Sequence record: NC_008152.1
Reading direction: 5' to 3' (one strand)
Source: Escherichia phage K1-5
Length of the DNA stretch: 44,385 bases
In this document: positions 6,002 to 31,037 of the stretch, piece after piece
Position numbering within the stretch: position 1 is the first letter of the stretch
Layout of the letters: every line of letters begins with the position of its first letter
Notes under the pieces: model-generated
Told to the model about the DNA's origin: nothing
Database searches by the model: none
The model's input: only the letters and a program-made list of their open reading frames with translations
Program-made: the position numbers and the translations under genes

Positions 6002-6017
6002 GTCTCACATGTGAGAC
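6002..6017. promoter_or_regulatory. 16-bp perfect palindrome GTCTCACATGTGAGAC (copy 1)
   Basis: Read directly; immediately upstream of promoter 6020. Confidence 0.6.
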
Positions 6018-6019
6018 TT

Positions 6020-6040
6020 ATTTACCGGACACTATAGGAT
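6020..6040 (+). promoter_or_regulatory. Phage RNAP promoter (early-type variant)
   Basis: atttaccggacactataggat; 2 nt downstream of a 16-bp palindrome. Confidence 0.6.
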
Positions 6041-6081
6041 AGCCGTCGGAGACGGGAAAGAAAGGGAAGATAAAGGATATA

Positions 6082-6140
6082 AAGGAAGTAATAGGTATTA
6101 AAGGTTATATAGGTTATCTAGGAATACCTATTACCTTCTT
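6082..6140. other. AT-rich dyad element (candidate primary replication origin)
   Basis: 12-bp inverted arms gtaataggtatt (6088..6099) and aatacctattac (6123..6134) flanking aaaggttatataggttatctagg; lies between two phage promoters after the RNAP gene. Confidence 0.4.
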
Positions 6141-6182
6141 CCTTCCTCTTATTACCACTCAGAGGAAGGGCAGACCTAGGTT

Positions 6183-6198
6183 GTCTCACATGTGAGAC
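6183..6198. promoter_or_regulatory. 16-bp palindrome GTCTCACATGTGAGAC (copy 2)
   Basis: Read directly; upstream of promoter-like 6204. Confidence 0.6.
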
Positions 6199-6203
6199 TT
6201 CGT

Positions 6204-6224
6204 ATTTACCGGACAGTATAGATA
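6204..6224 (+). promoter_or_regulatory. Phage RNAP promoter-like variant
   Basis: atttaccggacagtatagata; preceded by a second copy of the 16-bp palindrome. Confidence 0.4.
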
Positions 6225-6251
6225 AGATTAACTCACTTTGGAGATTTAACC

Positions 6252-6380
6252 ATGCGCAACTTTGAGAAGATGGCCCGTAAAGCTAACCGTTTTGACATGG
6301 AAGAGGGGCAGAAGAAAGGCAAGAAGCTGAATAAGCCTGTCCGTGACCGTGCATCTAAACGCGCTGCGTGGGAGTTCTAA
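6252..6380 (+). CDS. Small basic protein (42 aa), below ORF-track cutoff
   Basis: GGAGA RBS about 7 nt before ATG; MRNFEKMARKANRF...; ends just before the primase start. Confidence 0.35.
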   Translation: MRNFEKMARKANRFDMEEGQKKGKKLNKPVRDRASKRAAWEF

Positions 6381-6383
6381 GTT

Positions 6384-8372
6384 ATGGCTATTATTCAGAA
6401 TGTACCGTGTCCTGCCTGTCAAAAGAATGGACATGATATTACTGGCAACCATCTCATGATATTTGATGATGGTGCCGGCTACTGTAATCGTGGACACTTT
6501 CATGATAATGGTAGACCTTACTATCACAAGCCGGAAGGTGGCATCGAGATAACCGAGTTATCTATTACTGGCAATATCAAATATACACCTTCTCAATTCA
6601 AAGAAATGGAGAAGGAAGGGAAGATAAGCGACCCTAAATTACGTGCCATCGCACTTGGTGGTATGCGTATGAAAGACCGTTGGGAGGTCATGAATGAACA
6701 AGAAAGGGCAGAGCAAGAAGCAGAGTGGAAACTTGATGTTGAATGGTTCCTCACGCTTAAGCGTAAGAACCTTGTTTCCAGGCACATTCGCGGCGACATT
6801 TGCGCATTGTATGATGTACGTGTTGGGCACGATGAAGAGGGTAGAGTCTCACGGCATTACTATCCGCGCTTCGAAAAAGGTGAGCTAGTAGGCGCTAAGT
6901 GTCGCACATTACCTAAAGATTTTAAGTTTGGTCATTTAGGTAAACTCTTTGGTATGCAAGATCTTTTCGGTATGAATACTTTGTCTCACGTGTTAGACAA
7001 GGGAAGACGAAAGGATTGCTTGCTCATTGTCGGCGGCGAACTGGATGCACTAGCAGCGCAGCAGATGCTCCTTGATTCTGCCAAGGGTACTAAGTGGGAA
7101 GGCCAGCCATACCATGTATGGTCTGTCAACAAAGGCGAGTCTTGCCTTGAAGAGATAGTGCAGAACCGTGAGCATATCGCCCAATTCAAGAAGATTATAT
7201 GGGGTTTTGATGGAGATGAGGTAGGGCAGAAGCAGAATCAGCAAGCGGCTCGCCTGTTTCCTGGTAAATCCTATATCCTTGAATACCCCTCTGGTTGCAA
7301 AGATGCTAACAAGGCATTGATGGCTGGCAAGGCTAAAGAATTTGTAGATGCATGGTTTAATGCCAAGTCATCTGATGAAGTCTTTGGTAGCCAGATTAAA
7401 TCTATCGCATCTCAAAGGGATAAGCTCAAGGCTGCACGTCCAGAGCAAGGACTGTCATGGCCTTGGCCTAAGCTGAACAAGGTAACGCTAGGTATTCGTA
7501 AGAACCAGCTTATCATTGTAGGTGCAGGGTCTGGTGTAGGTAAGACTGAGTTCCTTCGTGAAGTAGTTAAGCACCTCATTGAAGAACACGGTGAATCTGT
7601 AGGCATCATTTCTACAGAAGACCCGATGGTCAAGGTGTCCCGTGCTTTTATCGGCAAGTGGATTGATAAGCGTATTGAGTTACCTCCAACCAACGACCCG
7701 AAAGAAGACGGATACCGTGAGGTGTTCGACTATACCGAGGAAGAAGCTAACGCCGCCATTGATTATGTAGCTGATACAGGTAAGCTGTTTGTAGCTGACC
7801 TAGAGGGTGACTATTCGATGGAAAAGGTAGAGCAAACTTGCCTAGAGTTTGAGGCTATGGGTATTTCTAATATCATCATTGATAACTTAACGGGGATTAA
7901 ATTAGATGAGCGTGCTTTTGGTGGGAAGGTTGGTGCACTTGATGAATGCGTCAAGCGGATTGGTACTATCAAAGACCGACACCCGGTTACTATATTCCTT
8001 GTATCACACCTTACACGTCCTCCGGCAAACCGTACCCAACACGAAGAAGGTGGCGAAGTTATCCTTTCTGACTTCCGAGGCTCAGGCGCTATCGGATTCT
8101 GGGCATCTTACGCCTTGGGGATTGAGCGTAATACAAGAGCTGAAACGCTTGACGAAAGGACTACCACGTACATCTCATGTGTCAAAGACCGCGACCAAGG
8201 TATCTACACTGGAACCAAGGTCATGCTTAAGGGTGACATTCAAACCGGACGTTTAATGGAACCACAAGCCCGTACTAAGTCATTTGATACAGGTGAAGCA
8301 AGGCAACAAGAAGTACCAGATTTACCGGATACTATAGAAGAGACTACCTTCGATGAAGAAAGTGAGTTCTGA
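6384..8372 (+). CDS. DNA primase/helicase (T7 gp4-like)
   Basis: 662 aa; N-terminal Cys4 zinc ribbon (CPACQ...YCNRGH), Walker A GAGSGVGKTEF, acidic C-terminus ...DEESEF. Confidence 0.95.
   Translation: MAIIQNVPCPACQKNGHDITGNHLMIFDDGAGYCNRGHFHDNGRPYYHKPEGGIEITELSITGNIKYTPSQFKEMEKEGKISDPKLRAIALGGMRMKDRWEVMNEQERAEQEAEWKLDVEWFLTLKRKNLVSRHIRGDICALYDVRVGHDEEGRVSRHYYPRFEKGELVGAKCRTLPKDFKFGHLGKLFGMQDLFGMNTLSHVLDKGRRKDCLLIVGGELDALAAQQMLLDSAKGTKWEGQPYHVWSVNKGESCLEEIVQNREHIAQFKKIIWGFDGDEVGQKQNQQAARLFPGKSYILEYPSGCKDANKALMAGKAKEFVDAWFNAKSSDEVFGSQIKSIASQRDKLKAARPEQGLSWPWPKLNKVTLGIRKNQLIIVGAGSGVGKTEFLREVVKHLIEEHGESVGIISTEDPMVKVSRAFIGKWIDKRIELPPTNDPKEDGYREVFDYTEEEANAAIDYVADTGKLFVADLEGDYSMEKVEQTCLEFEAMGISNIIIDNLTGIKLDERAFGGKVGALDECVKRIGTIKDRHPVTIFLVSHLTRPPANRTQHEEGGEVILSDFRGSGAIGFWASYALGIERNTRAETLDERTTTYISCVKDRDQGIYTGTKVMLKGDIQTGRLMEPQARTKSFDTGEARQQEVPDLPDTIEETTFDEESEF
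8320..8340 (+). promoter_or_regulatory. Near-consensus phage promoter inside the 3' end of the primase/helicase gene
   Basis: atttaccggatactatagaag. Confidence 0.45.
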
Positions 8373-8387
8373 TTAGTGTATTTATCA

Positions 8388-8413
8388 GGCTTGTCTCACA
8401 TGTGAGACAGGCT
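8388..8413. promoter_or_regulatory. Extended hairpin around palindrome copy 3
   Basis: caggcttGTCTCACATGTGAGACaggctc; follows the primase/helicase stop. Confidence 0.6.
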
Positions 8414-8447
8414 CTTATTAAGTACATTAAATAACTGGAGATTGATT

Positions 8448-9131
8448 ATGTATAACTTAGTGTTGAATGTAGGTGACTTTGTACGCAACATCAAGAAAGA
8501 TTCAAGTCGCTATCTTTGCCGTGGTGTTGTAACCTTTGTAGGTGAGAACCTGTATTATGTAGAATATCGCAGTGGTGTTAAGCAATATTACCACAAGAAG
8601 ACAGCACATAAATATCTTGAAAAGATTGTAGAGATAAACAATCAATGTAAGTGCATACATGATGAGGTTTGCGATAAATGTGCTCGCCAGATGCTTAAGA
8701 ATTTCCTAGCTCCTCTTTATTATGGTGCTGGTCCTCAAACACTAGCAGAGTGCATGGCAGAAAAGAAAACCACACTCAAGAAAGAGCGTCGCAATGTAAT
8801 CACTGGTAAGACTCAAAGTGAGATGATTAAGCAATGTGGCACTGCATTAGGTGTTACACAGTTTAATACTCGTGCATTGGGTAAATCCACAGGACAAGCT
8901 ATGGTAAAGATTGGAGAAGCCATGATGCATCCAAATGTACCTGTGCGAATCATGGATGTTGACCATGCAATCACAGAACAAGGTACGCAACGACGTGTAA
9001 TTAATAAGCATTTTGCCGACACTATAGAAGGCATTATTCGTAAGCAAGGGTTGAAAGGTCTTCACATCTTAAATGGTGAAGAATTACTGTACCTACCTAT
9101 CGTTACTGAAGAAACATACGTGAATATCTAA
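8448..9131 (+). CDS. Hypothetical protein (227 aa)
   Basis: Track ORF 8442 (TTG); ATG 8448 with GGAG RBS; Cys-rich segment CKCIHDEVCDKC. Confidence 0.6.
   Translation: MYNLVLNVGDFVRNIKKDSSRYLCRGVVTFVGENLYYVEYRSGVKQYYHKKTAHKYLEKIVEINNQCKCIHDEVCDKCARQMLKNFLAPLYYGAGPQTLAECMAEKKTTLKKERRNVITGKTQSEMIKQCGTALGVTQFNTRALGKSTGQAMVKIGEAMMHPNVPVRIMDVDHAITEQGTQRRVINKHFADTIEGIIRKQGLKGLHILNGEELLYLPIVTEETYVNI
9010..9030 (+). promoter_or_regulatory. Promoter-like core inside coding sequence
   Basis: attttgccgacactatagaag; core conserved, upstream part divergent. Confidence 0.25.
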
Positions 9132-9141
9132 GGAGTTAATC

Positions 9142-9360
9142 ATGACTAAGGTATTAATTTATATGCGTGGACCTCATAAATGCTATGCAGTTGTAGCACC
9201 AAATGGTGTTAAGCCTTATCGTACTTCAAAAAGATTGGCATTAATAGGTGCTAGTAGTAGTGCAAGTTTCCAAATGGAACTTTTTGGTCATTGGACTGAA
9301 AGGCAATTCCGTGAGGATTTTAAAGTCATTGGCAGCTTCATGGTGAAATATGCAGAATAA
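9142..9360 (+). CDS. Hypothetical protein (72 aa)
   Basis: TAAGGAG RBS; ORF track. Confidence 0.5.
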   Translation: MTKVLIYMRGPHKCYAVVAPNGVKPYRTSKRLALIGASSSASFQMELFGHWTERQFREDFKVIGSFMVKYAE

Positions 9361-9559
9361 ACATAGTCTTAGAATGTTCGATGGTCATGAAAACCTGCAA
9401 GCCAAGATTACTAACCAAGCCTTCCTGTTCGCACAGTTAACTATGGCTGAGGCTAAGAAGAATAGTCTCACTCGTGAACAGGTTATCAAGGAGGCCACTT
9501 GGGAACCACACCAAGGTAAATATATGGGCCACAAATTAACTGTAACACGCAGTCGATAA
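9350..9559 (+). CDS. Hypothetical protein (69 aa)
   Basis: ORF track; start overlaps end of previous gene. Confidence 0.45.
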   Translation: MQNKHSLRMFDGHENLQAKITNQAFLFAQLTMAEAKKNSLTREQVIKEATWEPHQGKYMGHKLTVTRSR

Positions 9560-9617
9560 GTCAAGGGTTGTCCAACGTGTTGGACAGCCTTTCATCATAT
9601 TGATTGGGAGGTATTAA

Positions 9618-9770
9618 ATGACTAAGTTTACTATGCAAGACCTCATTAAATTACGTGATGAAATAGAATCACCGGAAGTTAATACAGAGTTTCACTACAT
9701 TGATCCACGAGATAAACGAGAGATTCCTGATTATCAGATTGAGACGGAGTTAATGTATGAAGATTATTGA
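9618..9770 (+). CDS. Small acidic protein (50 aa), below ORF-track cutoff
   Basis: GGGAGG RBS then ATG 9618; stop overlaps the DNA polymerase start. Confidence 0.4.
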   Translation: MTKFTMQDLIKLRDEIESPEVNTEFHYIDPRDKREIPDYQIETELMYEDY

Positions 9771-12297
9771 TTGGAAGAAGGAAGCAGAAGGCCGTATCCT
9801 AGTGATGGATGCGGAGGCTAAAGGCCTGCTGGGTGCTATCCGCTACGGTCATCGTGAAGATGTACACATTATTTGCTGCATGGACTTGCTCACCACTGAG
9901 GAGTTCCTCTTCTTCGACCCATATGAGATGCGTGACCCTGAAGCAAGGGAACACTTGAAAGAGTGGGAAGGCCATCAAGATGGGACCTTGGTTGATGGTG
10001 TTAACTTCCTAAAGCACTGTGAAGCCATCGTCTCACAGAACTTCCTAGGCTATGACGGGCTTCTCTTTGAGAAAGCCTTCCCTGACATCTGGAAGGGATT
10101 TAACTACACCGAGAGGCGCGGCAAGGGCAGACTACGTGCTGACTTGTGTCCGGTACGCGTCATGGATACGCTGGTCATGAGTCGCCTGTTAAACCCAGAT
10201 AGACGCCTTCCTCCGCAAGCATATGCCAAAGGTATGGGTAACGTTGCCCCTCACTCAATTGAGGCGCACGGCATTCGTATAGGCCGTTATAAGCCGGAGA
10301 ACGAGGATTGGTCTAAACTAACTGACCACATGGTACATCGTGTACGCGAGGACGTGGCGATAGGCCGTGACCTATTCCTCTGGCTATTTAACGGAGAATG
10401 GACGGAGCACAAACGCCGTGGCGTGAATAAACGCACTGGCCTAGGTATTGAGACAGCCTTCCACATGGAGTCCATTGTGACGCTGGAGATGAGCCGTCAG
10501 GCCGAGCGTGGATTCCGTCTGGATATAGATAAAGCATTAGCACGATGCGAGGAATTGGACGCTAAGATTGATGAGACAGTCGCAGCGTTCCGTCCGCACA
10601 TGCCTATGCGTATCAAGTCTAAACCTTTTAAACCGGAAGAAAAGAATGAAGTATGCCAACGCGCAAATGAGTATGGAGCTAGCAACAATATACCTACTGT
10701 CCTTGACCCCTCTCACTTTCTTCACGCAGAGAGACGAGGAGATCGCAAGACAGTATGGAGTGTCACTACTAAGTCTGGTGATTGGTCGGCTAGCGTCAAG
10801 AAAGACTTTCCTCACCTTAGAGGAAACCGTAATGACACGCCAAGTGTCAAGTGGATTGGCGCTTACTCGCCTGTTACTTTCGAAGAGATTCCCTTGGGTA
10901 ACAGGGATACAGTTAAGCAAGTGCTCTATGATTATGGATGGAAAGGTGTTGAATTTAACGATACCGAGCAAGCGCATCTCGATGAGCATGGCGTATTACC
11001 CAAGCCTTGGAGTGGGAAGATAAATGAAAAGTCCCTTACTTTATGGCAAGAGAGAGCCGCACGTGAAGGTAAAACAGTCCCTGATTGGTGCTTGGGTATC
11101 GCTGCATGGTACATACTCGTATCCCGTCGTGGTCAGATCCTCAACCGTGGTGACGTTGAAGCCTTCGACCAGAAGGGGGTGTGGCCTTCGCAAGCTGGTA
11201 TACGAAAGTGTCGCGGCCTTGTACCTGTAGCATTTAACAAGGAGTTAGGAATCAATGCGCAGCAATACTACGAAAGGTACGGATGCTGGCCTACGTCAGA
11301 CAAGGATGACGGAGAATGGCGTGTGCCAGCTATTGCTATTAGTATTGGAACTTCTACGTTCCGTATGCGTCATCGTAACGTGGTTAATATTCCTGCCCGT
11401 GGCTTGTATCCTTTACGTGATTTATTCATAGCAGGGAAAGGCAAGCTAATCCTTGGTTGTGACGGTGCAGGTCTTGAACTGCGTGTCCTGTCTCACTTCA
11501 TGAATGACCCTGAGTACCAAGAGATTGTACTGCACGGTGATATTCATACGCATAACCAGATGAAGGCTGGTCTTCCTAAGCGTGATATGGCGAAGACATT
11601 TATATATGCCTTCCTATATGGGTCTGGTATAGCTAACCTTGCAGCAGTATGTGGTGTTACTGAGGAAGAAATGGAGGAAGTTGTGGCAAGATTTGAGGTT
11701 GAACTACCATCTCTTGCACGTCTTCGTGAGAATGTTATCGCACAAGGTAACAAGTTTGGCTACCTACAAGCACCTGATGGTCATTGGGGTCGCATCCGTA
11801 TGTCTGGTGGTGAACTTAAAGAACACACTATGCTTAACGTACTACTCCAGATGACTGGTTCTCTGTGTATGAAATACGCATTGGTCAGAGCGTTTGCAGT
11901 GATGCGCAAGGAAGGTGTGGCCTTAGATAGCATGGGAAACCCTTGCGGTATAGCTAACGTGCACGATGAAATCCAGATGGAAGTCCCTGAAGATGAGGTC
12001 TTGTATCTCAACTACGACTTGCCTTTCACCTTAGAAGGGTTCGAAACAGAGAAGGCTGCTGTGAAAGCAGTGTTCGATGCAGAGGAGAAACGTGTTCATG
12101 TGGATTCTGAAGGACGTATGTGGTCTGCTGCAAATCTCGTTAGTGTTGATGCTGGTGTACTTCATTGCCAGCGTCGTTATCACCGTGCAGGGCATATCAT
12201 TGCCGACGCAATGACCTGGGCGGGTCAGTACCTGAAGATGCGTTGTCCGATGGCAGGTGAGTATAAGATTGGTGCAAGTTGGAAGGAAACACACTGA
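9757..12297 (+). CDS. Family A DNA polymerase with 3'-5' exonuclease domain (T7 gp5-like)
   Basis: 846 aa; exo motif VMDAEAKG, pol motif A CDGAGLELRVLSHF, motif B RDMAKTFIYAFLYGSG, motif C VHDEIQ. Confidence 0.97.
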   Translation: MKIIDWKKEAEGRILVMDAEAKGLLGAIRYGHREDVHIICCMDLLTTEEFLFFDPYEMRDPEAREHLKEWEGHQDGTLVDGVNFLKHCEAIVSQNFLGYDGLLFEKAFPDIWKGFNYTERRGKGRLRADLCPVRVMDTLVMSRLLNPDRRLPPQAYAKGMGNVAPHSIEAHGIRIGRYKPENEDWSKLTDHMVHRVREDVAIGRDLFLWLFNGEWTEHKRRGVNKRTGLGIETAFHMESIVTLEMSRQAERGFRLDIDKALARCEELDAKIDETVAAFRPHMPMRIKSKPFKPEEKNEVCQRANEYGASNNIPTVLDPSHFLHAERRGDRKTVWSVTTKSGDWSASVKKDFPHLRGNRNDTPSVKWIGAYSPVTFEEIPLGNRDTVKQVLYDYGWKGVEFNDTEQAHLDEHGVLPKPWSGKINEKSLTLWQERAAREGKTVPDWCLGIAAWYILVSRRGQILNRGDVEAFDQKGVWPSQAGIRKCRGLVPVAFNKELGINAQQYYERYGCWPTSDKDDGEWRVPAIAISIGTSTFRMRHRNVVNIPARGLYPLRDLFIAGKGKLILGCDGAGLELRVLSHFMNDPEYQEIVLHGDIHTHNQMKAGLPKRDMAKTFIYAFLYGSGIANLAAVCGVTEEEMEEVVARFEVELPSLARLRENVIAQGNKFGYLQAPDGHWGRIRMSGGELKEHTMLNVLLQMTGSLCMKYALVRAFAVMRKEGVALDSMGNPCGIANVHDEIQMEVPEDEVLYLNYDLPFTLEGFETEKAAVKAVFDAEEKRVHVDSEGRMWSAANLVSVDAGVLHCQRRYHRAGHIIADAMTWAGQYLKMRCPMAGEYKIGASWKETH

Positions 12298-12413
12298 TGG
12301 ACAGGTTTGATATTGTTTGCCTATTCTCTACCTTCTTTCTTATATTCCTTATGCTTGCTTGCTATGGAAGTATGCGATTAGATATACCTGATGAAGAGGA
12401 GGGTTACGATTGA
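12297..12413 (+). CDS. Tiny hydrophobic peptide (38 aa)
   Basis: ATG overlaps DNAP stop (TGATG); MDRFDIVCLFSTFFLIFLMLACYG... is a single predicted TM helix. Confidence 0.3.
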   Translation: MDRFDIVCLFSTFFLIFLMLACYGSMRLDIPDEEEGYD

Positions 12414-12511
12414 TGCAGGCATCTTTTATTATTCTTGGAGTCATATTATTTATGGTAGTATTCTGGGCTTTCTCTGGCATTGACCCAGATTGTGATGGTA
12501 ACTACGACTGA
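12413..12511 (+). CDS. Tiny hydrophobic peptide (32 aa)
   Basis: GAGGAGGG RBS 9 nt upstream; MQASFIILGVILFMVVFWAF... TM-like. Confidence 0.3.
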   Translation: MQASFIILGVILFMVVFWAFSGIDPDCDGNYD

Positions 12512-12579
12512 GTTATACTCAAGGTCACTTACGAGTGGCCTTTATGAATAACTTATTCCTACTTATTTTGTCTAACATG

Positions 12580-12600
12580 ATTTACTGGACACTATAGAAG
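12580..12600 (+). promoter_or_regulatory. Phage RNAP promoter (perfect consensus)
   Basis: atttactggacactatagaag. Confidence 0.8.
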
Positions 12601-12666
12601 GAAAGCATAGGTAATCTAGGTTTATAAGGTAGTATAGGTAATTAAGTAAATATAGGAGATATAAAT

Positions 12667-13044
12667 ATGTCTATGGTAACTACTCTGGTATTCGTGGCTC
12701 AATACTTTCGTGGTCTTGCTAATAAGTTCAAGTCCAAGGCTATCAAAGCTATTGAGGCTCGCATCGAAGCAGTACAGGCAGAGCAAGTTAAAGTTGAAGA
12801 ACATCGTAGTTCTCAAATGATTGACTGTCATAACCGCTACTATGCATCTCGTGATGAACTAAATGCACGTCAAGTCAAAGAGGTAGAAGATATGCTGGCA
12901 CGTCACCAGCAAGAGCGTGACAGCCTGAAAGCTGAATTTGAAGAGAACAAGGCATCAATTGCTCTTGTACATCAAGCTGCATCTGACAGTCTGAAGAAAG
13001 AGATTGTTATGCTGGAAATCGAACTGGATAACCTGACCAAATAA
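12667..13044 (+). CDS. Hypothetical coiled-coil protein (125 aa)
   Basis: AGGAGA RBS; downstream of a consensus phage promoter. Confidence 0.6.
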   Translation: MSMVTTLVFVAQYFRGLANKFKSKAIKAIEARIEAVQAEQVKVEEHRSSQMIDCHNRYYASRDELNARQVKEVEDMLARHQQERDSLKAEFEENKASIALVHQAASDSLKKEIVMLEIELDNLTK

Positions 13045-13053
13045 GGGGGGGTT

Positions 13054-13353
13054 ATGATGGAAGAAGTAATTCAAGCTAAACATGTAGGTATTATCTTTCG
13101 CGATCTAGAGCAGCGTAAAGTTGCAGGTCATACTCGTCTGGCTAAAGAGGAAGACACCGCAATCACTACTGTAGAACAAGCAGATGCCTATCGTGGACCA
13201 GAGTTCACTCAAGGTGAAACTTGTCACCAATTGAGCCTATCAATTTGTGACACTATGGCTATTGTAAATGTGCAAGAAGTCGAAGAGGGTGAGTGTGTCA
13301 GTTACATCTACCCTTTAGATACTATTGCACGCATTAAGGTAATCCATAAGTAA
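13054..13353 (+). CDS. Hypothetical protein (99 aa)
   Basis: GGGGGG RBS-like tract before ATG; ORF track. Confidence 0.5.
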   Translation: MMEEVIQAKHVGIIFRDLEQRKVAGHTRLAKEEDTAITTVEQADAYRGPEFTQGETCHQLSLSICDTMAIVNVQEVEEGECVSYIYPLDTIARIKVIHK

Positions 13354-13373
13354 TTACTAGACACTATAGAACA
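13353..13373 (+). promoter_or_regulatory. Phage RNAP promoter variant
   Basis: attactagacactatagaaca. Confidence 0.45.
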
Positions 13374-13522
13374 ATAGGTCGGCTTAGTTCGGCCTATGAT
13401 TGTAAAGTGTTGTTGATGTTGAACCATTGTGCATCTTGCACAACCCGATACCGTATAGGGCTTTCTAGTGAGTACATGCTTGTGCTCAGTACAAAGCTAA
13501 CTGACAATAGGAGACTAAATAA

Positions 13523-14557: not shown

Positions 14558-14558
14558 A

Positions 14559-14574
14559 GTCTCACGTGTGAGAC
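14559..14574. promoter_or_regulatory. Palindrome variant GTCTCACGTGTGAGAC (copy 4)
   Basis: Loop differs (CGTG vs CATG), stem conserved; upstream of promoter 14590. Confidence 0.55.
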
Positions 14575-14589
14575 AAATCGGTGTCCGGT

Positions 14590-14610
14590 ATTTACTGGAC
14601 ACTATAGAAG
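14590..14610 (+). promoter_or_regulatory. Phage RNAP promoter (perfect consensus)
   Basis: atttactggacactatagaag; 15 nt downstream of a palindrome variant. Confidence 0.8.
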
Positions 14611-22845: not shown

Positions 22846-22851
22846 TTCAGT

Positions 22852-22872
22852 ATTTACTGGACACTATAGAAG
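22852..22872 (+). promoter_or_regulatory. Phage RNAP promoter (perfect consensus) upstream of major capsid gene
   Basis: atttactggacactatagaag followed by gggag. Confidence 0.85.
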
Positions 22873-22924
22873 GGAGAAAAGTTCTCCCTAGTTATCAATT
22901 TGATTTATAAGGAGATTATAATAC

Positions 22925-24133
22925 ATGTCTACACCGAATACTCTGACTAACGTTGCTGTATCTGCGTCCGGTGAGGTTGACAGCCTTCTCATTGAGAAGT
23001 TTAATGGTAAGGTCAATGAGCAGTACCTGAAAGGTGAGAACATTCTGTCCTACTTTGATGTACAAACTGTTACTGGCACTAACACAGTGAGCAACAAATA
23101 TTTGGGCGAAACTGAGTTGCAGGTGCTAGCACCGGGTCAGTCCCCTAATGCCACCCCTACTCAGGCGGATAAAAACCAGTTGGTAATTGATACCACTGTC
23201 ATTGCTCGTAACACTGTGGCTCACATCCACGATGTACAAGGTGACATCGATAGCCTGAAACCAAAACTGGCTATGAACCAAGCCAAGCAACTGAAACGTC
23301 TGGAAGACCAGATGGCAATTCAGCAGATGCTGTTAGGCGGTATTGCTAACACCAAGGCCGAACGTAACAAGCCGCGTGTTAAAGGGCATGGCTTCTCTAT
23401 CAACGTTAACGTAACTGAGAGTGAAGCACTGGCTAACCCTCAGTATGTTATGGCTGCGGTAGAGTATGCTCTGGAGCAACAGCTTGAGCAGGAAGTGGAC
23501 ATCTCTGATGTAGCTATCATGATGCCGTGGAAGTTCTTCAATGCTTTGCGTGATGCAGACCGAATTGTAGATAAGACTTACACTATCAGCCAGTCTGGTG
23601 CAACCATTAATGGCTTCGTTCTCTCTTCTTATAACTGCCCTGTGATCCCGTCTAACCGATTCCCTACCTTCGCTCAGGATCAGGCTCACCACCTGTTGTC
23701 TAATGAAGATAACGGCTATCGTTATGACCCTATCGCAGAGATGAATGGTGCAGTTGCTGTTCTGTTCACTTCCGACGCACTGCTGGTGGGTCGTACCATT
23801 GAAGTGACTGGTGACATCTTCTATGAGAAGAAAGAGAAGACTTATTACATTGACACCTTCATGGCTGAGGGTGCAATCCCTGACCGTTGGGAAGCAGTGT
23901 CTGTAGTTACCACTAAACGTGATGCAACTACTGGTGATGCTGGAGGTCCTGGTGATGATCACGCAACCGTACTGGCTCGTGCACAGCGTAAGGCTGTATA
24001 TGTCAAAACCGAAGGTGCTGCGGCTGCATTCTCTGCTGCCCCAGCAGGTATCCAAGCGGAAGACCTTGTAGCGGCGGTACGTGCTGTAATGGCAAATGAC
24101 ATTAAGCCGACTGCAATGAAACCTACTGAGTAA
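22925..24133 (+). CDS. Major capsid protein
   Basis: 402 aa; perfect consensus phage promoter and strong RBS (AAGGAGA) upstream, strong terminator downstream. Confidence 0.9.
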   Translation: MSTPNTLTNVAVSASGEVDSLLIEKFNGKVNEQYLKGENILSYFDVQTVTGTNTVSNKYLGETELQVLAPGQSPNATPTQADKNQLVIDTTVIARNTVAHIHDVQGDIDSLKPKLAMNQAKQLKRLEDQMAIQQMLLGGIANTKAERNKPRVKGHGFSINVNVTESEALANPQYVMAAVEYALEQQLEQEVDISDVAIMMPWKFFNALRDADRIVDKTYTISQSGATINGFVLSSYNCPVIPSNRFPTFAQDQAHHLLSNEDNGYRYDPIAEMNGAVAVLFTSDALLVGRTIEVTGDIFYEKKEKTYYIDTFMAEGAIPDRWEAVSVVTTKRDATTGDAGGPGDDHATVLARAQRKAVYVKTEGAAAAFSAAPAGIQAEDLVAAVRAVMANDIKPTAMKPTE

Positions 24134-24141
24134 CACCTATG

Positions 24142-24176
24142 CCCTATCTACCTTGCGTAGGTAGGGTTCTTTTTGT
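24142..24176 (+). terminator. Hairpin plus T-run terminator after capsid gene
   Basis: ccctatctac-cttgc-gtaggtaggg then ttctttttgtt. Confidence 0.7.
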
Positions 24177-24187
24177 TAGGAGGATTC

Positions 24188-24925
24188 ATGCCTGTAATTA
24201 GACAAACCAGTAAATTAGGACATATGATGGAAGATGTGGCCTTCCAGATTATTGATAGTAAGCTGGAAGCGGTAAACTTGTGTATGCGAGCTATTGGTCG
24301 TGAGGGTGTGGATTCCCTCGACTCAGGGGACTTGGACGCAGAAGATGCAAGCAAAATGATCGACATCGTATCCCAGCGGTTCCAGTACAACAAAGGAGGT
24401 GGCTGGTGGTTCAATCGTGAACCAAACTGGCAACTTGCACCAGACACTAACGGTGAAGTTAATTTACCTAACAACTGCCTAGCAGTATTGCAGTGTTATG
24501 CTTTAGGTGAAAAGAAAGTACCTATGACTATGCGAGCAGGTAAGCTCTACTCTACTTGGAGTCACACCTTTGATATGCGTAAGCATGTTAATGCTAATGG
24601 TATGATTCGTCTTACCTTACTCACCTTACTACCCTACGAGCATCTACCTACAAGTGTAATGCAGGCTATTGCCTATCAAGCTGCTGTAGAGTTTATTGTG
24701 TCTAAGGATGCAGATCAGACTAAGCTAGCCACTGCGCAGCAGATAGCCACTCAGCTTCTTATGGATGTACAATCTGAGCAAATGTCACAGAAGCGATTAA
24801 ACATGCTGGTACATAACCCTACTCAGCGTCAGTTTGGTATCATGGCTGGTGGCTCTCAGAATGTACCTGCTTACTCTCATTCACCTTATGAGAGTTGGGC
24901 GCTCCGTCCGTGGGAGGATCGTTAA
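24188..24925 (+). CDS. Tail tubular protein A (gp11-like)
   Basis: Track ORF 24173; ATG 24188 after AGGAGG; synteny after capsid. Confidence 0.75.
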   Translation: MPVIRQTSKLGHMMEDVAFQIIDSKLEAVNLCMRAIGREGVDSLDSGDLDAEDASKMIDIVSQRFQYNKGGGWWFNREPNWQLAPDTNGEVNLPNNCLAVLQCYALGEKKVPMTMRAGKLYSTWSHTFDMRKHVNANGMIRLTLLTLLPYEHLPTSVMQAIAYQAAVEFIVSKDADQTKLATAQQIATQLLMDVQSEQMSQKRLNMLVHNPTQRQFGIMAGGSQNVPAYSHSPYESWALRPWEDR

Positions 24926-27327
24926 TGGAAGTACAAGGTTCATTAGGTAGACAAATCCAAGGGATTAGCCAGCAGCCGCCAGCGGTACGCTTGGATGGTC
25001 AGTGCACAGCTATGGTTAATATGATACCTGATGTAGTGAATGGTACTCAATCACGCATGGGTACAACTCATATTGCAAAGATACTTGATGCGGGGACTGA
25101 TGACATGGCTACTCATCATTATCGCAGAGGTGATGGTGATGAAGAGTATTTCTTCACGTTGAAGAAAGGACAAGTTCCTGAGATATTTGATAAGTATGGG
25201 CGCAAATGTAATGTGACTTCACAAGATGCACCTATGACCTACCTCTCTGAGGTTGTTAATCCAAGGGAAGATGTGCAATTCATGACGATAGCTGATGTTA
25301 CTTTCATGCTTAATCGTAGGAAAGTAGTTAAAGCTAGTAGCAGGAAGTCACCTAAAGTTGGAAACAAAGCCATTGTGTTTTGTGCGTATGGTCAATATGG
25401 TACATCTTATTCCATTGTAATTAATGGGGCCAACGCTGCTAGTTTTAAAACACCGGATGGTGGAAGTGCAGACCATGTTGAACAAATTCGAACTGAACGT
25501 ATCACTTCTGAATTGTACTCTAAGTTGCAGCAATGGAGCGGTGTGAGTGACTATGAAATACAAAGAGACGGTACTAGTATATTTATCGAGAGACGGGATG
25601 GTGCTAGCTTTACAATAACAACCACCGATGGTGCAAAAGGTAAGGACTTAGTGGCTATCAAGAATAAAGTTAGCTCTACTGACCTACTCCCTTCTCGTGC
25701 GCCTGCTGGTTATAAAGTACAAGTGTGGCCTACTGGCAGCAAACCTGAGTCTCGTTACTGGCTGCAAGCTGAGCCTAAAGAGGGAAACCTTGTGTCTTGG
25801 AAAGAAACAATAGCTGCTGATGTATTACTTGGGTTTGATAAAGGCACAATGCCTTACATTATTGAACGTACAGATATCATCAACGGCATAGCTCAATTCA
25901 AGATAAGACAAGGTGATTGGGAAGATCGTAAAGTAGGGGATGACTTGACTAACCCTATGCCCTCTTTTATTGATGAGGAAGTACCCCAGACAATAGGTGG
26001 AATGTTCATGGTGCAGAACCGCCTATGCTTTACAGCAGGTGAAGCGGTTATTGCTTCTCGTACATCATACTTCTTCGATTTCTTTCGTTATACGGTTATC
26101 TCTGCATTGGCAACTGACCCCTTTGATATTTTCTCAGATGCTAGTGAAGTCTACCAGCTAAAACATGCAGTGACCTTAGATGGCGCTACCGTGTTGTTCT
26201 CTGATAAGTCACAATTCATACTGCCAGGCGATAAGCCTTTAGAGAAGTCAAATGCACTGCTTAAGCCTGTTACAACATTTGAAGTGAACAATAAAGTGAA
26301 GCCAGTAGTAACTGGTGAATCGGTAATGTTTGCCACTAATGATGGTTCTTACTCTGGTGTACGAGAGTTCTATACAGACTCTTATAGTGACACTAAGAAG
26401 GCACAAGCAATCACAAGTCATGTGAATAAACTCATCGAAGGTAACATTACCAACATGGCAGCAAGCACCAATGTCAACAGGTTACTTGTCACTACCGATA
26501 AGTATCGTAACATAATCTACTGCTACGATTGGTTATGGCAAGGAACAGACCGTGTACAATCAGCATGGCATGTATGGAAGTGGCCTATAGGTACAAAGGT
26601 GCGAGGTATGTTTTATTCTGGTGAATTACTTTACCTGCTCCTTGAGCGAGGAGATGGCGTGTATCTGGAGAAGATGGACATGGGTGATGCACTAACCTAC
26701 GGTTTGAATGACCGCATCAGAATGGATAGGCAAGCAGAGTTAGTCTTCAAGCATTTCAAAGCAGAAGATGAATGGGTATCTGAGCCGCTCCCTTGGGTTC
26801 CTACTAACCCAGAACTTTTAGATTGCATCTTAATCGAGGGTTGGGATTCATATATTGGCGGCTCTTTCTTATTCAAGTACAACCCTAGTGACAATACTTT
26901 GTCTACAACCTTTGATATGTATGATGACAGCCATGTAAAAGCGAAGGTTATTGTTGGTCAGATTTACCCTCAAGAGTTTGAACCTACGCCTGTGGTTATC
27001 AGAGACAATCAAGACCGTGTATCCTACATTGATGTACCAGTTGTAGGATTGGTTCACCTTAATCTTGACATGTACCCCGATTTCTCCGTAGAAGTTAAGA
27101 ATGTGAAGAGTGGTAAAGTACGTAGAGTATTAGCGTCAAACCGTATAGGTGGTGCTCTCAATAATACAGTAGGCTATGTTGAACCGAGAGAAGGTGTCTT
27201 CAGATTTCCACTGAGAGCTAAGAGCACGGATGTTGTTTATCGTATTATTGTAGAGTCACCTCACACATTCCAGCTTCGTGATATTGAGTGGGAAGGGAGC
27301 TACAATCCAACCAAAAGGAGGGTCTAA
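24925..27327 (+). CDS. Tail tubular protein B (gp12-like)
   Basis: Track ORF 24895; ATG 24925 overlaps previous stop (TAATG) after GGGAGGA; 800 aa (T7 gp12 is about 794 aa). Confidence 0.8.
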   Translation: MEVQGSLGRQIQGISQQPPAVRLDGQCTAMVNMIPDVVNGTQSRMGTTHIAKILDAGTDDMATHHYRRGDGDEEYFFTLKKGQVPEIFDKYGRKCNVTSQDAPMTYLSEVVNPREDVQFMTIADVTFMLNRRKVVKASSRKSPKVGNKAIVFCAYGQYGTSYSIVINGANAASFKTPDGGSADHVEQIRTERITSELYSKLQQWSGVSDYEIQRDGTSIFIERRDGASFTITTTDGAKGKDLVAIKNKVSSTDLLPSRAPAGYKVQVWPTGSKPESRYWLQAEPKEGNLVSWKETIAADVLLGFDKGTMPYIIERTDIINGIAQFKIRQGDWEDRKVGDDLTNPMPSFIDEEVPQTIGGMFMVQNRLCFTAGEAVIASRTSYFFDFFRYTVISALATDPFDIFSDASEVYQLKHAVTLDGATVLFSDKSQFILPGDKPLEKSNALLKPVTTFEVNNKVKPVVTGESVMFATNDGSYSGVREFYTDSYSDTKKAQAITSHVNKLIEGNITNMAASTNVNRLLVTTDKYRNIIYCYDWLWQGTDRVQSAWHVWKWPIGTKVRGMFYSGELLYLLLERGDGVYLEKMDMGDALTYGLNDRIRMDRQAELVFKHFKAEDEWVSEPLPWVPTNPELLDCILIEGWDSYIGGSFLFKYNPSDNTLSTTFDMYDDSHVKAKVIVGQIYPQEFEPTPVVIRDNQDRVSYIDVPVVGLVHLNLDMYPDFSVEVKNVKSGKVRRVLASNRIGGALNNTVGYVEPREGVFRFPLRAKSTDVVYRIIVESPHTFQLRDIEWEGSYNPTKRRV

Positions 27328-28049
27328 TGGCTATAGGTTCAGCCGTTATGGCTGGTATGTCTTCTATTGGTAGCATGTTTGCAGGCAGTGGTGCAGCAGC
27401 CGCTGCTGGAGGTGCTGCCGCAGGTGGCGGAGGTTTGCTAGGTTCACTAGGTGGATTCCTAAGTGGCTCTACTGCTGGTTTCTCTAATGCTGGCCTTCTT
27501 GGTGCTGGCCTTCAAGGGTTAGGCTTGATTGGTGATCTATTTGGTGGAAGTGATGAAGCCAAGGCGATGAAGAAAGCACAAGAAGAGCAATGGCGGCAGC
27601 AGCTTATTGCTACACAAGAGGCGTACAAGACAGTGGCAGACGCAGAACGTTCTGCTGCTAAACAATATCATGCAGATGCAATCAGTAATCAGGCTTCACT
27701 GCTACAGCAGCGAGCACAGGTTGCATTACTTGCTGGGGCTACTGGTACTGGTGGTAATTCTGTGTCCTCTATGCTTAATGACTTAGCAGCAGATGGCGGC
27801 AGGAACCAGAGTACTATCATTGATAACTATGAGAATCAGAAGATTAATTTCACCAACCAGCTTAAGTCTATCCAACGTGGTGGTCAGATGCAGATGCGTG
27901 AGTTTAAGAAGCCTTCTGCTATGAATACCTTGGTTAAAGGTATTCCAAGTCTGGCATCTGCCTATGTAACTGGTAGTAAGTCTGGCAAGGCATTGGGTAA
28001 AGCCTTAACTGATTCTCGCACATATTCATCTGGAACAAGAGGTATTTAA
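27327..28049 (+). CDS. Internal virion protein (gp14-like), Gly-rich N-terminus
   Basis: Track ORF 27288; ATG 27327 after AAGGAGGG; synteny. Confidence 0.55.
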   Translation: MAIGSAVMAGMSSIGSMFAGSGAAAAAGGAAAGGGGLLGSLGGFLSGSTAGFSNAGLLGAGLQGLGLIGDLFGGSDEAKAMKKAQEEQWRQQLIATQEAYKTVADAERSAAKQYHADAISNQASLLQQRAQVALLAGATGTGGNSVSSMLNDLAADGGRNQSTIIDNYENQKINFTNQLKSIQRGGQMQMREFKKPSAMNTLVKGIPSLASAYVTGSKSGKALGKALTDSRTYSSGTRGI

Positions 28050-30997
28050 TGGCAATTGAGCGACAAGCAGTACAAGGTCTGCCACAAGTGCAGGCCACTT
28101 CTCCTAATGTCATGACCTTTGCACCTCAACAAGTGGGAGGTGTGGAGGCTGGCGTGGCTTCTACCTCCGGTAGTAGGTTTATCGAAGACCTTATTCGTGC
28201 AGCAAGCAGCGTGGCTGATGTTACCACTGGTATCCTTAATCAGAAGATTGAGGAAGATAAGGTTGTTCAAATGGAACGGGCATATAACGGATTAATGCCT
28301 TCTGAGGATGCAACTCGTGGTGGCGCTCGTGCTAACATGCTTGTCAAAGCTCAACTGCTAGCTAATGATGAAGCAGCACGAATGAAAGACATGGCTACTC
28401 GTTTCCAAGGAACGGATGACGAATGGACACAACTTATGGTTGACTCTCGTAATGAGATGCAGAATAAGCTGTTCCAGCAATACCCTGAGTTGCAAGGTGA
28501 CAAAGATACTATGCGTATGGTCACTAATGTCTTCCAAGAACAGCAGCCTCAGATTTGGGCTACACGAACCCAGCATAAACTTGACCGTGAACAAGCAGAC
28601 CGTGAGGATACCTTTGACGGGCGAGTGGCTTCTACTTGGGATTCTAATATTGACCCTGAAGCCTCTGGCTATGCTTTACAGGAACGAATCCGCGAAGGTC
28701 TTACTCAAGGATTACTACCTGAACAGATGTACAAGAAGTTAGTCCAGCGAGCAATTTCACTTGCACAAGGCGGTGATGTTAGCATGGCTGAAGCCCTGAA
28801 GTATGTGAAGGACGATAAGGGTGTTTCTGTTTATGCTAAGAATCCACAGCTTATCACAGCCATCACTAGTGGTAATGCAGTTTGGGCTAGGAATAATGTA
28901 GCTGATGTAACTCGTATGTCTTTCGAAGTTAAAGAATCCTACCTTGCAGGTGATTTAACTGATGAAGAATTGTTGGAACGAGCACAGCACATTAATAATC
29001 TGACAGGTAACTCTGTCTTCTCTAATCCAGAACTAGAGGCACTGATGCGCCAACGGGCTAAGCAGAATGCAGAGCTAGGTGCAATGCAGGATATGCGACG
29101 TGAGCTTTACTCCGACCGCCTGACTGGCTTCCAAGGTAAGACTGATAAAGAGAAGAAGGCTTACATTGATGTTATCAAACAGGATAGCCAACTTTATGCA
29201 GACCAGCAAATCAAACAACGTGGCTTGGACCCTTACAGTCAAGAGGCTGAAGCTATTCGTGGTGCAGTGGAAGTGCAGCGCCTGCAATTCATGAACTCCA
29301 AAGGCTTAGTGGATGATACCTTTGAGTCTCGTATCAAAGCCATGGAATCTATGCTATCGCCTGAGCACTTTGCCAAGGGCGAACCACAGGAGTTGATGAC
29401 TATTCGCCAGTTGTGGGAACAGTTACCAGAAGAGAGCCGAGGTGTCTTTGGTGACACGGTGAATGGCTACATGGATAACTACAACACTGCACTACAAATG
29501 GGAGAGACACCTTTGCAGGCTGCAAGGTTTGCGCGTAAAGCACAGCAGAAATTCTCTCGTACTGAGAAGGAAACCAAGAAGTTCAACTCAGCTATTGGAG
29601 ATGCACTGGATGAGGTATCTGGTGCTGGCTGGTTTGATGGTAAAACCGAAGTGTCAGACTTAGGTAAAGCTATTGCGGAAGAAGAGTTACGAGCTAAGGC
29701 CAATATGTTGTGGTCTAGTGGTATGCGTAACATGGATTCCATCAAGAAGGCTTTAATTACTTGGGGCAATAAACGCTACACTCAATCAGAGGATGCAAAG
29801 ACTTCCGGTGGCTATTTCATTAAAGGTGATTACACTTCTGCATCTGATATGCTTATGTCAGTTGGGAAAGGCGTAAACCCTACCGATGTACCTCTGGCGC
29901 TTGGTAGGTATGTAGAAACACAGATGCCAGAATTGAAGAAGGAGCTTCAAGAGGGGGAAACTAAAGATGATATATACATTGATTACAATGAACAGAAAGG
30001 TACTTTCGTGATTCGTGCTGGTGCAGCAGGTCGCCCTCTTTCTGGAGTAATCCCTGTAACCTCTTTAGATACCACTTCACTACTAGATTCTGCCTATCAG
30101 AAGAAAGTAGAGGAACGAGATAAAGGCGAGTATGTTCACCCGTATCGTACAGATATTGGTGCACAAGAGCCTATGCCAGCTAAACCAACTGCCAAAGATA
30201 TTGGTAAATTTGGACTAGCTAACTTCCTCATGTCTTCTGCTTTTGCTTCTGGTGAGAATCTGCCTTCTAACTTCGAGATTAACTATCGAGGTAATATGCA
30301 ACAATTCTATGACAAGCTAGCTATGGATGAGAATAAAGATAAAGTTGGCTTTAATAAGGCAACTGGAACCTTTACTCCATATAAAGACGCTCACGGTGAG
30401 TCTATCGGTTACGGTCATTTCTTAACGGAAGAAGAGAAGCGAAACGGGTATATTAAGATTGGCGATGAACTAGTTCCCTATCGAGGGTCTATGTCTCAGC
30501 TTACAGAGAGCAAGGCTCGCGCTCTTATGGAGCAAGATGCTAAGAAGCATGTGCCTCCTACTCGTGACTGGAAGATTCCGTTTGACCAGATGCACCCTGC
30601 ACAGCAACGTGGCTTGATGGATTTAAGCTACAATTTAGGTAAAGGTGGAATCCAGAACTCACCGCGTGCTCTTGCTGCATTCAAAGCTGGTAAGCTTACG
30701 GAGGGCTTTATCGAAATGCTGGGCACTGCATCAAGTGAAGGTAAGCGTATTCCTGGCCTACTGAAGCGACGCGCTGAGGCATACAATATGGCATCTGCTG
30801 GTGGTGTGCCTAAGATTACCGAAGTGGAGACTCGTGAAGATGGCTCCATGTGGGTTAGGTTTGGTGGACCTATGCCAGCAGGTTCTGTCTCGGCATGGAC
30901 TCATAAACGTATTGGCGCGGATGGTTGGTATCAGGTTTATGAGGCTGCACCTACCAAGTTAGCTAAAGATTCTAAGGTAGGTAAAGTTAAGTTGTAG
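28049..30997 (+). CDS. Internal virion (core) protein, gp15-like, with C-terminal T4-lysozyme-like (GH24) domain
   Basis: 982 aa; C-terminal YKDAHGESIGYGH...LMDLSYNLGKGG...LLKRRAEAYNMA parallels T4 lysozyme YKDTEGYYTIGIGH...ALINMVFQMG. Confidence 0.75.
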   Translation: MAIERQAVQGLPQVQATSPNVMTFAPQQVGGVEAGVASTSGSRFIEDLIRAASSVADVTTGILNQKIEEDKVVQMERAYNGLMPSEDATRGGARANMLVKAQLLANDEAARMKDMATRFQGTDDEWTQLMVDSRNEMQNKLFQQYPELQGDKDTMRMVTNVFQEQQPQIWATRTQHKLDREQADREDTFDGRVASTWDSNIDPEASGYALQERIREGLTQGLLPEQMYKKLVQRAISLAQGGDVSMAEALKYVKDDKGVSVYAKNPQLITAITSGNAVWARNNVADVTRMSFEVKESYLAGDLTDEELLERAQHINNLTGNSVFSNPELEALMRQRAKQNAELGAMQDMRRELYSDRLTGFQGKTDKEKKAYIDVIKQDSQLYADQQIKQRGLDPYSQEAEAIRGAVEVQRLQFMNSKGLVDDTFESRIKAMESMLSPEHFAKGEPQELMTIRQLWEQLPEESRGVFGDTVNGYMDNYNTALQMGETPLQAARFARKAQQKFSRTEKETKKFNSAIGDALDEVSGAGWFDGKTEVSDLGKAIAEEELRAKANMLWSSGMRNMDSIKKALITWGNKRYTQSEDAKTSGGYFIKGDYTSASDMLMSVGKGVNPTDVPLALGRYVETQMPELKKELQEGETKDDIYIDYNEQKGTFVIRAGAAGRPLSGVIPVTSLDTTSLLDSAYQKKVEERDKGEYVHPYRTDIGAQEPMPAKPTAKDIGKFGLANFLMSSAFASGENLPSNFEINYRGNMQQFYDKLAMDENKDKVGFNKATGTFTPYKDAHGESIGYGHFLTEEEKRNGYIKIGDELVPYRGSMSQLTESKARALMEQDAKKHVPPTRDWKIPFDQMHPAQQRGLMDLSYNLGKGGIQNSPRALAAFKAGKLTEGFIEMLGTASSEGKRIPGLLKRRAEAYNMASAGGVPKITEVETREDGSMWVRFGGPMPAGSVSAWTHKRIGADGWYQVYEAAPTKLAKDSKVGKVKL

Positions 30998-31007
30998 TAC
31001 CTAACTC

Positions 31008-31037
31008 AAGGCTTGTCTCACATGTGAGACAGGTCTT
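31008..31037. promoter_or_regulatory. Extended hairpin around palindrome copy 5
   Basis: aaggcttGTCTCACATGTGAGACaggtcttt; between gp15-like and gp16-like genes. Confidence 0.6.

Follow-up and report, generated by a model that had tools for sequence, protein, structure and literature searches.

A conserved palindrome family in Escherichia phage K1-5 and its relatives: probable operator sites of an early protein with a predicted ParB/KorB fold

Escherichia phage K1-5 (NC_008152.1) carries a family of short palindromes whose 16-bp core we regard, with a probability of roughly 0.7, as the double-stranded DNA operator of a 297-aa early protein with a predicted ParB/KorB fold. This protein, encoded at 2344..3237 on the + strand, is referred to below as the proposed reader. 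The window analyzed here is the complete 44,385-bp genome of this K1-5/K1E-type Vectrevirus (Autographiviridae, Molineuxvirinae), in which all genes are oriented along the + strand and the phage promoters read ATTTACCGGACACTATAG. Over the 2.8 kb that were compared, it shows 98.3% identity to its best match in the phage collection. What this study establishes is the site family and its conservation, a set of RNA structures and their match to those of phage T7, the predicted fold of the reader, and a co-variation between one of its residues and the palindrome arms.

The family follows the pattern GTC[TC][CA]AC-N2-3-GT[GT][AG]GAC (that is, GTC[Y][M]AC-N2-3-GT[K][R]GAC) and is represented eight times in the window, at 559, 6002, 6183, 6983, 8393, 9570, 14559 and 31015, against a chance expectation of 0.004 based on base composition. 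Usually the core is flanked by T and A, which extends it to the 18-bp form T-GTC-Y-M-AC-RY-GT-K-R-GAC-A. A first-pass annotation, made from the sequence alone, had listed five copies (6002, 6183, 8393, 14559 and 31015), for which 100 dinucleotide shuffles give an expectation of zero. All five are located as it claimed, four being exact and the one at 14559 having GT at its centre; its count, however, missed the three members at 559, 6983 and 9570, and not every copy is intergenic, as it had stated, because 6983 sits inside the primase/helicase gene. Three copies had correctly been placed just upstream of phage promoters, those at 6002, 6183 and 14559 ending 20, 23 and 33 nt before the +1, and two behind long genes with stems of more than 10 bp. 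Of the latter, 8393 comes after the primase/helicase gene and 31015 after the gene of a 982-aa internal virion protein, and their flanks lengthen the stem to 13-14 bp. Rfam returned no match in the window at gathering thresholds, and a full-text literature search, the reach of which did not include the founding genome papers, returned no paper on the palindrome sequences or on a palindromic or inverted repeat in SP6, K1E or K1-5.

The window was compared, as the eleventh genome of the set, with K1E, SP6, two Klebsiella phages, Lelliottia phD2B, Proteus Pm5460, Pectobacterium PP1, Erwinia Era103 and the two Colwellvirinae Pseudomonas Ulitu01 and Vibrio VEN. This search for positional conservation, which the first-pass annotation had put forward as a check, showed that the copies are kept in syntenic slots across the ten relatives. 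When 6-nt inverted repeats were counted without bias, this family ranked first among the palindromes of each of the ten, and all Molineuxvirinae and Colwellvirinae genomes examined hold 6-11 copies versus about 0.005 expected; the T7 genome has none. The left-end slot, which precedes the first early promoter, is occupied in 11/11 genomes, and one or two copies are located after the terminator of the RNA polymerase (RNAP) gene, before the first phage promoters. Further slots lie at about codon 200 of the helicase gene, after the helicase gene, before the DNA polymerase gene, before the promoter upstream of a 123-aa gene and after the gene of the large internal virion protein, and, in some genera, within the RNAP gene and within the kinase or ligase gene. 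A phage promoter adjoins 26 of 91 sites without overlapping them.

Across 99 sites, arm positions 1, 2, 6 and 7 are invariant, position 3 is changed only in one locus (L050), as T·G, and changes at positions 4/13 and 5/12 are nearly always complementary. The centre is always a purine followed by a pyrimidine, and the spacer comprises 2 bp in 71 sites and 3 bp in 28; in Pm5460 (L006) the left-end copy at 562 has a 2-bp spacer and the copies at 6615, 9159, 10234, 15021 and 31563 have 3-bp spacers. In stand-alone copies the core sequence is conserved far more than nearby structural stems. The arm allele of the window, GTCTCAC/GTGAGAC, is common to K1-5, K1E, Era103 and both Colwellvirinae, GTCCAAC/GTTGGAC is found in the Klebsiella, Lelliottia, Proteus and Pectobacterium phages, and SP6 mostly uses GTCTAAC/GTTGGAC. 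The copies within a genome share one arm allele, the window having two off-allele copies (9570 with the other allele and 559 with TA/TA), and the distribution of alleles between genomes contradicts phylogeny. Such a concerted change of the arms leads one to expect a sequence-specific reader that acts in trans.

Non-structural proteins that occur in every one of the ten motif-bearing genomes but not in T7 are few. Twenty-four conserved protein families were aligned, and about 6,700 columns were screened for those which follow the arm allele rather than the tree. Nine columns do so, eight of which are conservative or variable on one side only (L/M, S/A, D/E, V/I and similar). The ninth is residue 69 of the 297-aa early protein, which is Lys in 5/5 phages with TC/GA arms, Asn in 5/5 phages with CA/TG arms and His in SP6. 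This rule is without exception in 34 IMG/VR loci (19 Lys, 14 Asn, 1 His), each consisting of the reader gene and 10-kb flanks; roughly one in three of these loci is itself a discovery genome. Among 250 homologues, residue 69 is K, N or, once, R, while K64 is invariant and Q66 differs in a single sequence. Two predictions were borne out on newly fetched contigs: the distant Asn69 lineage L048 carries GTCTAAC-NN-GTTAGAC, and the sole Arg69 protein (L050) is accompanied by a new allele, GT[T/C]CCAC-NNN-GTGGGAC. Altogether, residue 69 (K/N/H/R) fits arm positions 4-5 in 36/36 informative loci, a co-variation which is strong but indirect. In the major groove, Lys or Arg is preferred opposite G and Asn opposite A. 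Placed on the RNAP tree, the allele has switched independently five times, including a reversal from Asn to Lys in the clade of the window. Residue 72 was also considered as the main determinant; it correlates partially with the allele and is countered by the Proteus phages (Asn69/Lys72) and by P0232 (Lys69/Asn72), the contig of which is not long enough to include operator sites. An operator for a dimeric DNA-binding protein, which the first-pass annotation had offered as a second possibility, is thus the explanation favoured for the core, as a predicted recognition-helix residue of an early protein co-varies with the arm sequence.

The copy inside the helicase gene shows the same pattern of alleles within a reading frame. 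It is located at 6983..6998 (GTCTCACGTGTTAGAC; codons 200-205, L-S-H-V-L-D) and is syntenic in K1E, SP6, KlebK44, Kp7, phD2B and PP1. The site reads TCT CAC GTG TTA GAC (S-H-V-L-D) in K-type phages and TCC AAC GTG TTG GAC (S-N-V-L-D) in N-type phages, residue 202 of the helicase being His in the former and Asn in the latter. A perfect K-type right arm would be a TGA stop in the helicase frame, to which TTA is the nearest sense codon, and in the N-type phages the synonymous TTG completes a perfect N-type palindrome. Since the codons of the two types differ as each palindrome needs, both the synonymous codons and one residue of the helicase follow the operator allele, and it appears from the sequences that the embedded DNA site dictates the codon choice at 6984-6998 (codons 201-205) together with this one residue.

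The gene of the proposed reader is located just upstream of the phage RNAP gene and is equivalent to K1E gp6 and SP6 gp7; translation probably starts at Met4, which would give 294 aa. An AlphaFold2 model, built from 75 diverse homologues and confident for residues 13-125 and 195-296, predicts a helix-turn-helix (HTH) domain of the ParB/KorB fold at residues 13-125, with a helix at 49-60, a turn and a recognition helix at 64-77 that bears K64, Q66, residue 69 (Lys69 in the window) and residue 72. Beyond this domain, the model comprises a disordered acidic linker, a 43-residue helix (195-237) and a small J-domain-like C-terminal domain. In structural comparisons the model scored 8.7 with Spo0J (1vz0), 7.9 with KorB bound to its operator (1r71), 7.5 with the Caulobacter ParB DNA-binding domain (6s6h), 7.2 with KorB (8qa8) and 5.2-5.6 with SopB, P1 ParB and VirB (3mkw, 1zx4, 3vwb), and the predicted HTH fold is of the ParB/KorB type. 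The N-terminal CTP-binding domain ParB/Srx gave no Pfam match even at E up to 10 and is absent from the model, and the reader should therefore not be filed as a ParB/KorB orthologue. Neither does the reader show the fold with a His-Pro-Asp motif between helices II and III that marks a J-domain. No ParA-like partner is listed in the annotation tables of the relatives or was found in Pfam scans of 20 early-/middle-region open reading frames of the window, and for the same 20 frames Pfam and PHROGs gave no nucleic-acid-binding annotation.

We propose that the operator duplex GTCTCACATGTGAGAC is the target of a dimer of this early protein, which would be made from the early transcripts of the host RNAP. 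Each ParB/KorB-type HTH would read one 7-bp half-site, with residue 69 reading arm positions 4-5 (12-13 on the other arm), and the half-site centres, 9-10 bp apart, would be separated by one turn of B-DNA. The sites would mark the first early promoter, the presumptive origin with the first phage promoters after the RNAP gene, and one further middle promoter, the remaining ones being placed in the helicase gene (one site) and at unit boundaries (three sites). In every genome, one site precedes the first early promoter, from which the operon of the reader itself is transcribed, and one or two sites lie at the region equivalent to the T7 origin, where a gene 1.1 homologue comes next in the window and in several relatives. 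By analogy to KorB of plasmid RK2, these positions suggest that the reader may act as a global site-specific regulator or roadblock of early and middle transcription, and control might extend to the reader's own operon and to the origin. Physical binding, dimerisation and the regulatory outcome are what we infer from the above.

RK2 KorB, with its 12 OB operators, differs from the reader in several respects. In the latter, no ParB/Srx-type N-terminal CTPase domain is detectable, the HTH is N-terminal and followed by the long helix and the J-domain-like module, and there is no similarity to KorB at the level of sequence; moreover, the replicon is a virulent phage of the T7 supergroup, and the neighbouring promoters are mostly for the single-subunit phage RNAP. 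Compared to chromosomal ParB (Spo0J) and parS (TGTTTCACGTGAAACA), the phage half-sites are separated by 2-3 extra bp, and the phage side has no ParA in the annotation tables of the relatives, no CTPase domain and, being lytic, no evident role in segregation. What appears to be new here is, with good likelihood as judged from sequence and model, an operator system of the ParB/KorB type without the CTPase module in virulent phages of the T7 supergroup.

Several points weigh against this proposal. The link between protein and sites rests on co-variation and a predicted fold, the regulatory role is read from the site positions only, and dimerisation via the long helix is an assumption. A profile of the reader family run against PDB sequences yielded coiled-coil noise only, with no sequence tie to ParB/KorB, and the Foldseek E-values for the model are weak. 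Pfam gives the family sub-threshold matches to DUF3102 (PF11300) only, which in some members cover the HTH region (P0155, E 8.6e-4). Some family members are labelled DUF3102 in UniRef and the structural neighbours in BFVD are DUF3102 proteins; the reader of the window itself is below every Pfam threshold, and DUF3102, a family of phage and plasmid proteins, is without assigned function or known DNA site. The occurrence of 2-bp spacers in most genomes and 3-bp spacers in others, with both kinds in Pm5460, sits uneasily with a rigid dimer but would be unremarkable in a hairpin loop, and wobble pairs are 14:4 in favour of the + strand (U.G vs C.A). The wobble excess and the mixed spacers hint at room for a constraint at the RNA level or for a C-to-T bias of the non-template strand. 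Finally, the window tolerates the off-allele copy at 9570 and the TA/TA copy at 559, and residue 69 is thus no absolute discriminator.

An RNA-level role is best supported where the palindrome is part of a larger structure. Three copies are embedded in two-stem hairpins on the + strand: one after the helicase gene (8379..8424; 24 pairs, 5 with compensatory changes; z -4.3), one before the DNA polymerase gene (9552..9604; 23 pairs, 10 with compensatory changes; z -3.7), and one after the gene of the 982-aa internal virion protein (post-gp35/36), a T7-type RNase III-like site (30996..31050; 16 pairs, 7 with compensatory changes; z -5.3). The three share a layout of lower stem, internal loop and upper stem, the pairing of the flanks covaries between genera, and the conserved G·U pairs are valid only in the + strand transcript. 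With upper stems of 13-14 bp and lower stems of 5-9 bp, all three attain about two helical turns. RNase III substrates need about this length, and internal loops of this kind impose cleavage of one strand, by which a protective 3' hairpin is left (PMC1540722). The element around 31015, ACUCAAGGcuu[GUCUCACAUGUGAGAC]aggUCUUUAUGA, has the internal loop ACUC/UAUGA and the stem base AAGG/UCUU, aligned to AAGG/CCUU of T7. It corresponds column for column to T7 R0.3, R0.5, R1.1, R4.7 and R18.5, with CTCAAGG and TTATG invariant and the lower-stem arms aligned. The T7 folds at these five sites take the form (A)CUCAAGG-[upper stem]-CCUUUAUGA; they are consistent with the cleavage coordinates, which we take to be those of Dunn and Studier (1983). 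The internal loops at 9570 (AGUC ... UCAUCA) and 8393 (UC ... CUUAU) have variant sequences in the same layout.

Since every feature that can be tested in silico fits, the loci at 8393, 9570 and 31015 are classed as T7-type RNase III sites, and they are very probably processing hairpins, with cleavage predicted from their sequence. Like those of T7, the sites are intergenic and often adjoin promoters, and they have the same lower stem, asymmetric internal loop and upper stem. In contrast, the upper stem comprises 13-14 bp in K1-5 versus about 10 in T7, being extended by the palindrome that T7 lacks, and the five stand-alone copies of K1-5 do not have this architecture. A canonical T7-type signature without the palindrome (ACUCAAGGUCACUUACGAGUGGCCUUUAUGA; GAGUUAUACUCAAGGUCACUUACGAGUGGCCUUUAUGAAUAACUU) is located at 12509..12556 on the + strand, the upper stem of which is nearly identical to those of T7 R1.1 and R0.5. 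Thus, the palindrome is an addition at the tip of some sites rather than the RNase III signal, and T7-type RNase III sites are common to Studiervirinae and Molineuxvirinae. The suggestion of the first-pass annotation that the palindromes are RNase III sites accordingly holds for its extended copies at 8393 and 31015, and for the unlisted one at 9570, as conserved and covarying two-stem hairpins, but fails to explain the conserved 16-bp core. In our proposal, the operator would be placed at the tip of an RNase III hairpin at these three boundaries. The hairpin tip takes the palindrome without disrupting the RNA structure, and the three loci may thus have a function in the DNA as well as in the RNA.

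The stand-alone copies at 559, 6002, 6183 and 14559 form isolated hairpins of 6-8 bp with -4.9 to -7.9 kcal/mol, and at 6983 the core hairpin does not form. With 6-8 bp, the copies at 559, 6002, 6183, 6983 and 14559 fall far below the approximately two helical turns of an RNase III substrate (PMC1540722), and the enzyme therefore does not explain the stand-alone cores. It might still be argued that every copy is purely an RNA hairpin, for RNase III or as another element of processing or stability, and that the co-variation with residue 69 is coincidental or reflects binding of the protein to an RNA stem. All genes lie on the + strand, so every copy is transcribed, three copies belong to the conserved structures described above, the changes at 4/13 and 5/12 preserve pairing, the spacer varies in sequence and length as a loop would, and the wobble ratio of 14:4 refers to the transcribed strand. 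We nevertheless consider this explanation unlikely. Besides the weakness of the stand-alone hairpins (-5 to -8 kcal/mol), arm positions 1-3, 6 and 7 hardly vary between subfamilies whose intergenic DNA is otherwise dissimilar, whereas the flanking stems covary freely. Within genes, copies are conserved despite C.U or A.G mismatches, and the site at 12509-12556 demonstrates that a canonical RNase III-type signal exists without the core. In addition, the Lys/Arg-G and Asn-A pattern of a ParB/KorB-type HTH favours B-DNA over an A-form RNA stem.

The first-pass annotation had also considered pausing or termination for the core, and copies at the ends of units, before the next promoter, might be taken for intrinsic terminators or pause sites of the phage or host RNAP. 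The GenBank record of one relative labels its post-helicase copy as an ARNOLD 'putative terminator', and several copies directly follow stop codons. Seven SP6 RNAP terminators have been cited (PMC11347151), some of which probably coincide with extended copies. A simple scan flags 6002 and 6183, which pass in a lax search only because the next promoter begins T-rich. However, an intrinsic terminator combines a G+C-rich hairpin with a U-tract, whereas the core hairpins are weak and the 3' flanks in the relatives mostly not U-rich, as for Era103 (AUUAACCACCC) and VEN (AAGGAGAUAG). Conserved copies reside within the genes of RNAP, helicase and ligase/kinase, some of the copies thus being in essential genes, and in the post-RNAP slot a strong terminator, distinct from the copies, is already present directly upstream of them. 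The tested SP6 terminator t5 (PMC11347151) is an unrelated classical hairpin behind the capsid gene, and termination would not call for a stem whose sequence is fixed and co-varies with a residue of a protein. A role in termination or pausing is thus very unlikely.

Least credible appears a host transcription factor or nucleoid protein whose site is exploited by the phage. In its favour, the half-site is similar to bacterial parS and the hosts are without exception Gammaproteobacteria. Against this, the alleles differ between phages of close hosts (K1-5 on E. coli, SP6 on Salmonella, and the Klebsiella phages), one allele is common to phages of Escherichia, Erwinia, Pseudomonas and Vibrio, and the allele follows a phage-encoded residue. 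Enterobacteriaceae chromosomes are also not known to carry ParABS, and the sites of the E. coli regulators CRP, SlmA (SBS), MatP (matS), MetJ and Tus are not known to match the arrangement of the palindrome. A primase recognition site was rejected as well: the primases of T7 and SP6 read GTC and GCA, respectively; the motif shows no conservation 5' of its GTC, and its core contains no GCA. Restriction sites (BsmAI, GTCTC; AflIII, ACRYGT) do not account for the allele switching, and hairpin promoters of the N4 type were discarded because their stems have unrelated sequences and the phage encodes no polymerase of that kind.

The remaining copies and their surroundings, none of the operator copies being assigned to a strand, are as follows. 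The copy at 559..574 (GTCTAACACGTTAGAC), the TA/TA copy, has both arms altered and is doubly compensated; 34 bp separate it from the -35 of the first sigma70-like early promoter (609-637), which lies downstream. The early intrinsic terminator of the window (5936-5959), with a 10-bp stem and a TTCTTTT tail, directly follows the RNAP gene, and the exact copy at 6002..6017 lies between it and the first phage promoter; the order of terminator, operator and phage promoter is repeated in Kp7, PP1, Era103, phD2B and Ulitu01. The exact copy at 6183..6198 precedes the second post-RNAP promoter, at the place equivalent to R1.1 of T7, which is flanked by phi1.1A and phi1.1B; the gene that follows is a homologue of T7 gene 1.1. 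Between the two post-RNAP promoters, with the operators at 6002 and 6183 on either side, an 18-nt AT-rich inverted repeat (89% complementary) is found at 6082-6140, which is a candidate replication origin because it occupies the position of the primary origin of T7. At the tips of their hairpins, the copies at 8393-8408 and 31015-31030 are exact, and that at 9570-9585 (GTCCAACGTGTTGGAC) has the alternative arm allele, both variable arm positions being swapped with complementarity kept. The copy at 14559..14574 begins 2 nt past the stop of a 72-aa gene. Nearby, at 14581-14603, the inverted repeat GGTGTCCGG-TATTTA-CTGGACAC has the specificity region of the phage promoter as its 3' arm; in the same slot of five relatives (L003, L005, L006, L008, L009) the 5' arm changes along with each phage's own promoter, and a promoter-embedded hairpin or dyad is therefore conserved. 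Tandem operators were observed in two relatives: a tandem pair of operators 35 bp apart with a truncated promoter in between in Era103 (L007, 7022-7072), and two operators inside a 55-bp direct repeat ending in a C-run in Ulitu01 (L011, 9167-9238).

SP6, K1E and K1-5 are classic model phages and candidates for therapy, and SP6 RNA polymerase belongs to the standard reagents of the laboratory; regulation in the SP6 group past promoters and terminators is essentially undescribed. The candidate global regulator is conserved over two subfamilies of the Autographiviridae, and its probable DNA sites are approachable with one protein and one oligonucleotide. The pairing of residue 69 (K, N, H, R) with operator positions 4-5 would represent a natural specificity code and a compact system in which to study how proteins and DNA co-evolve and to build orthogonal operator-repressor pairs. 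The palindromes should not be annotated automatically as terminators, and recoding or refactoring of the phage could break eight sites, including the one hidden in the helicase frame. More broadly, we lean, if only slightly, towards the view that the SP6-like and Colwellvirinae phages, virulent members of the T7 supergroup, possess an unrecognised genome-wide operator network. Its reader would combine a CTPase-less ParB/KorB-type domain with a coiled coil and a J-domain-like module, residue 69 (Lys/Asn/His/Arg) would set the allele, and the site sets would have been rewritten at least five times. Such a network may coordinate the hand-over from host to phage RNAP, the origin and the shut-off of middle genes, roles which in T7 belong to gp0.7, gp2 and lysozyme, and it may recruit DnaK to DNA, while operators in the tips of RNase III hairpins would serve at the levels of both DNA and RNA.

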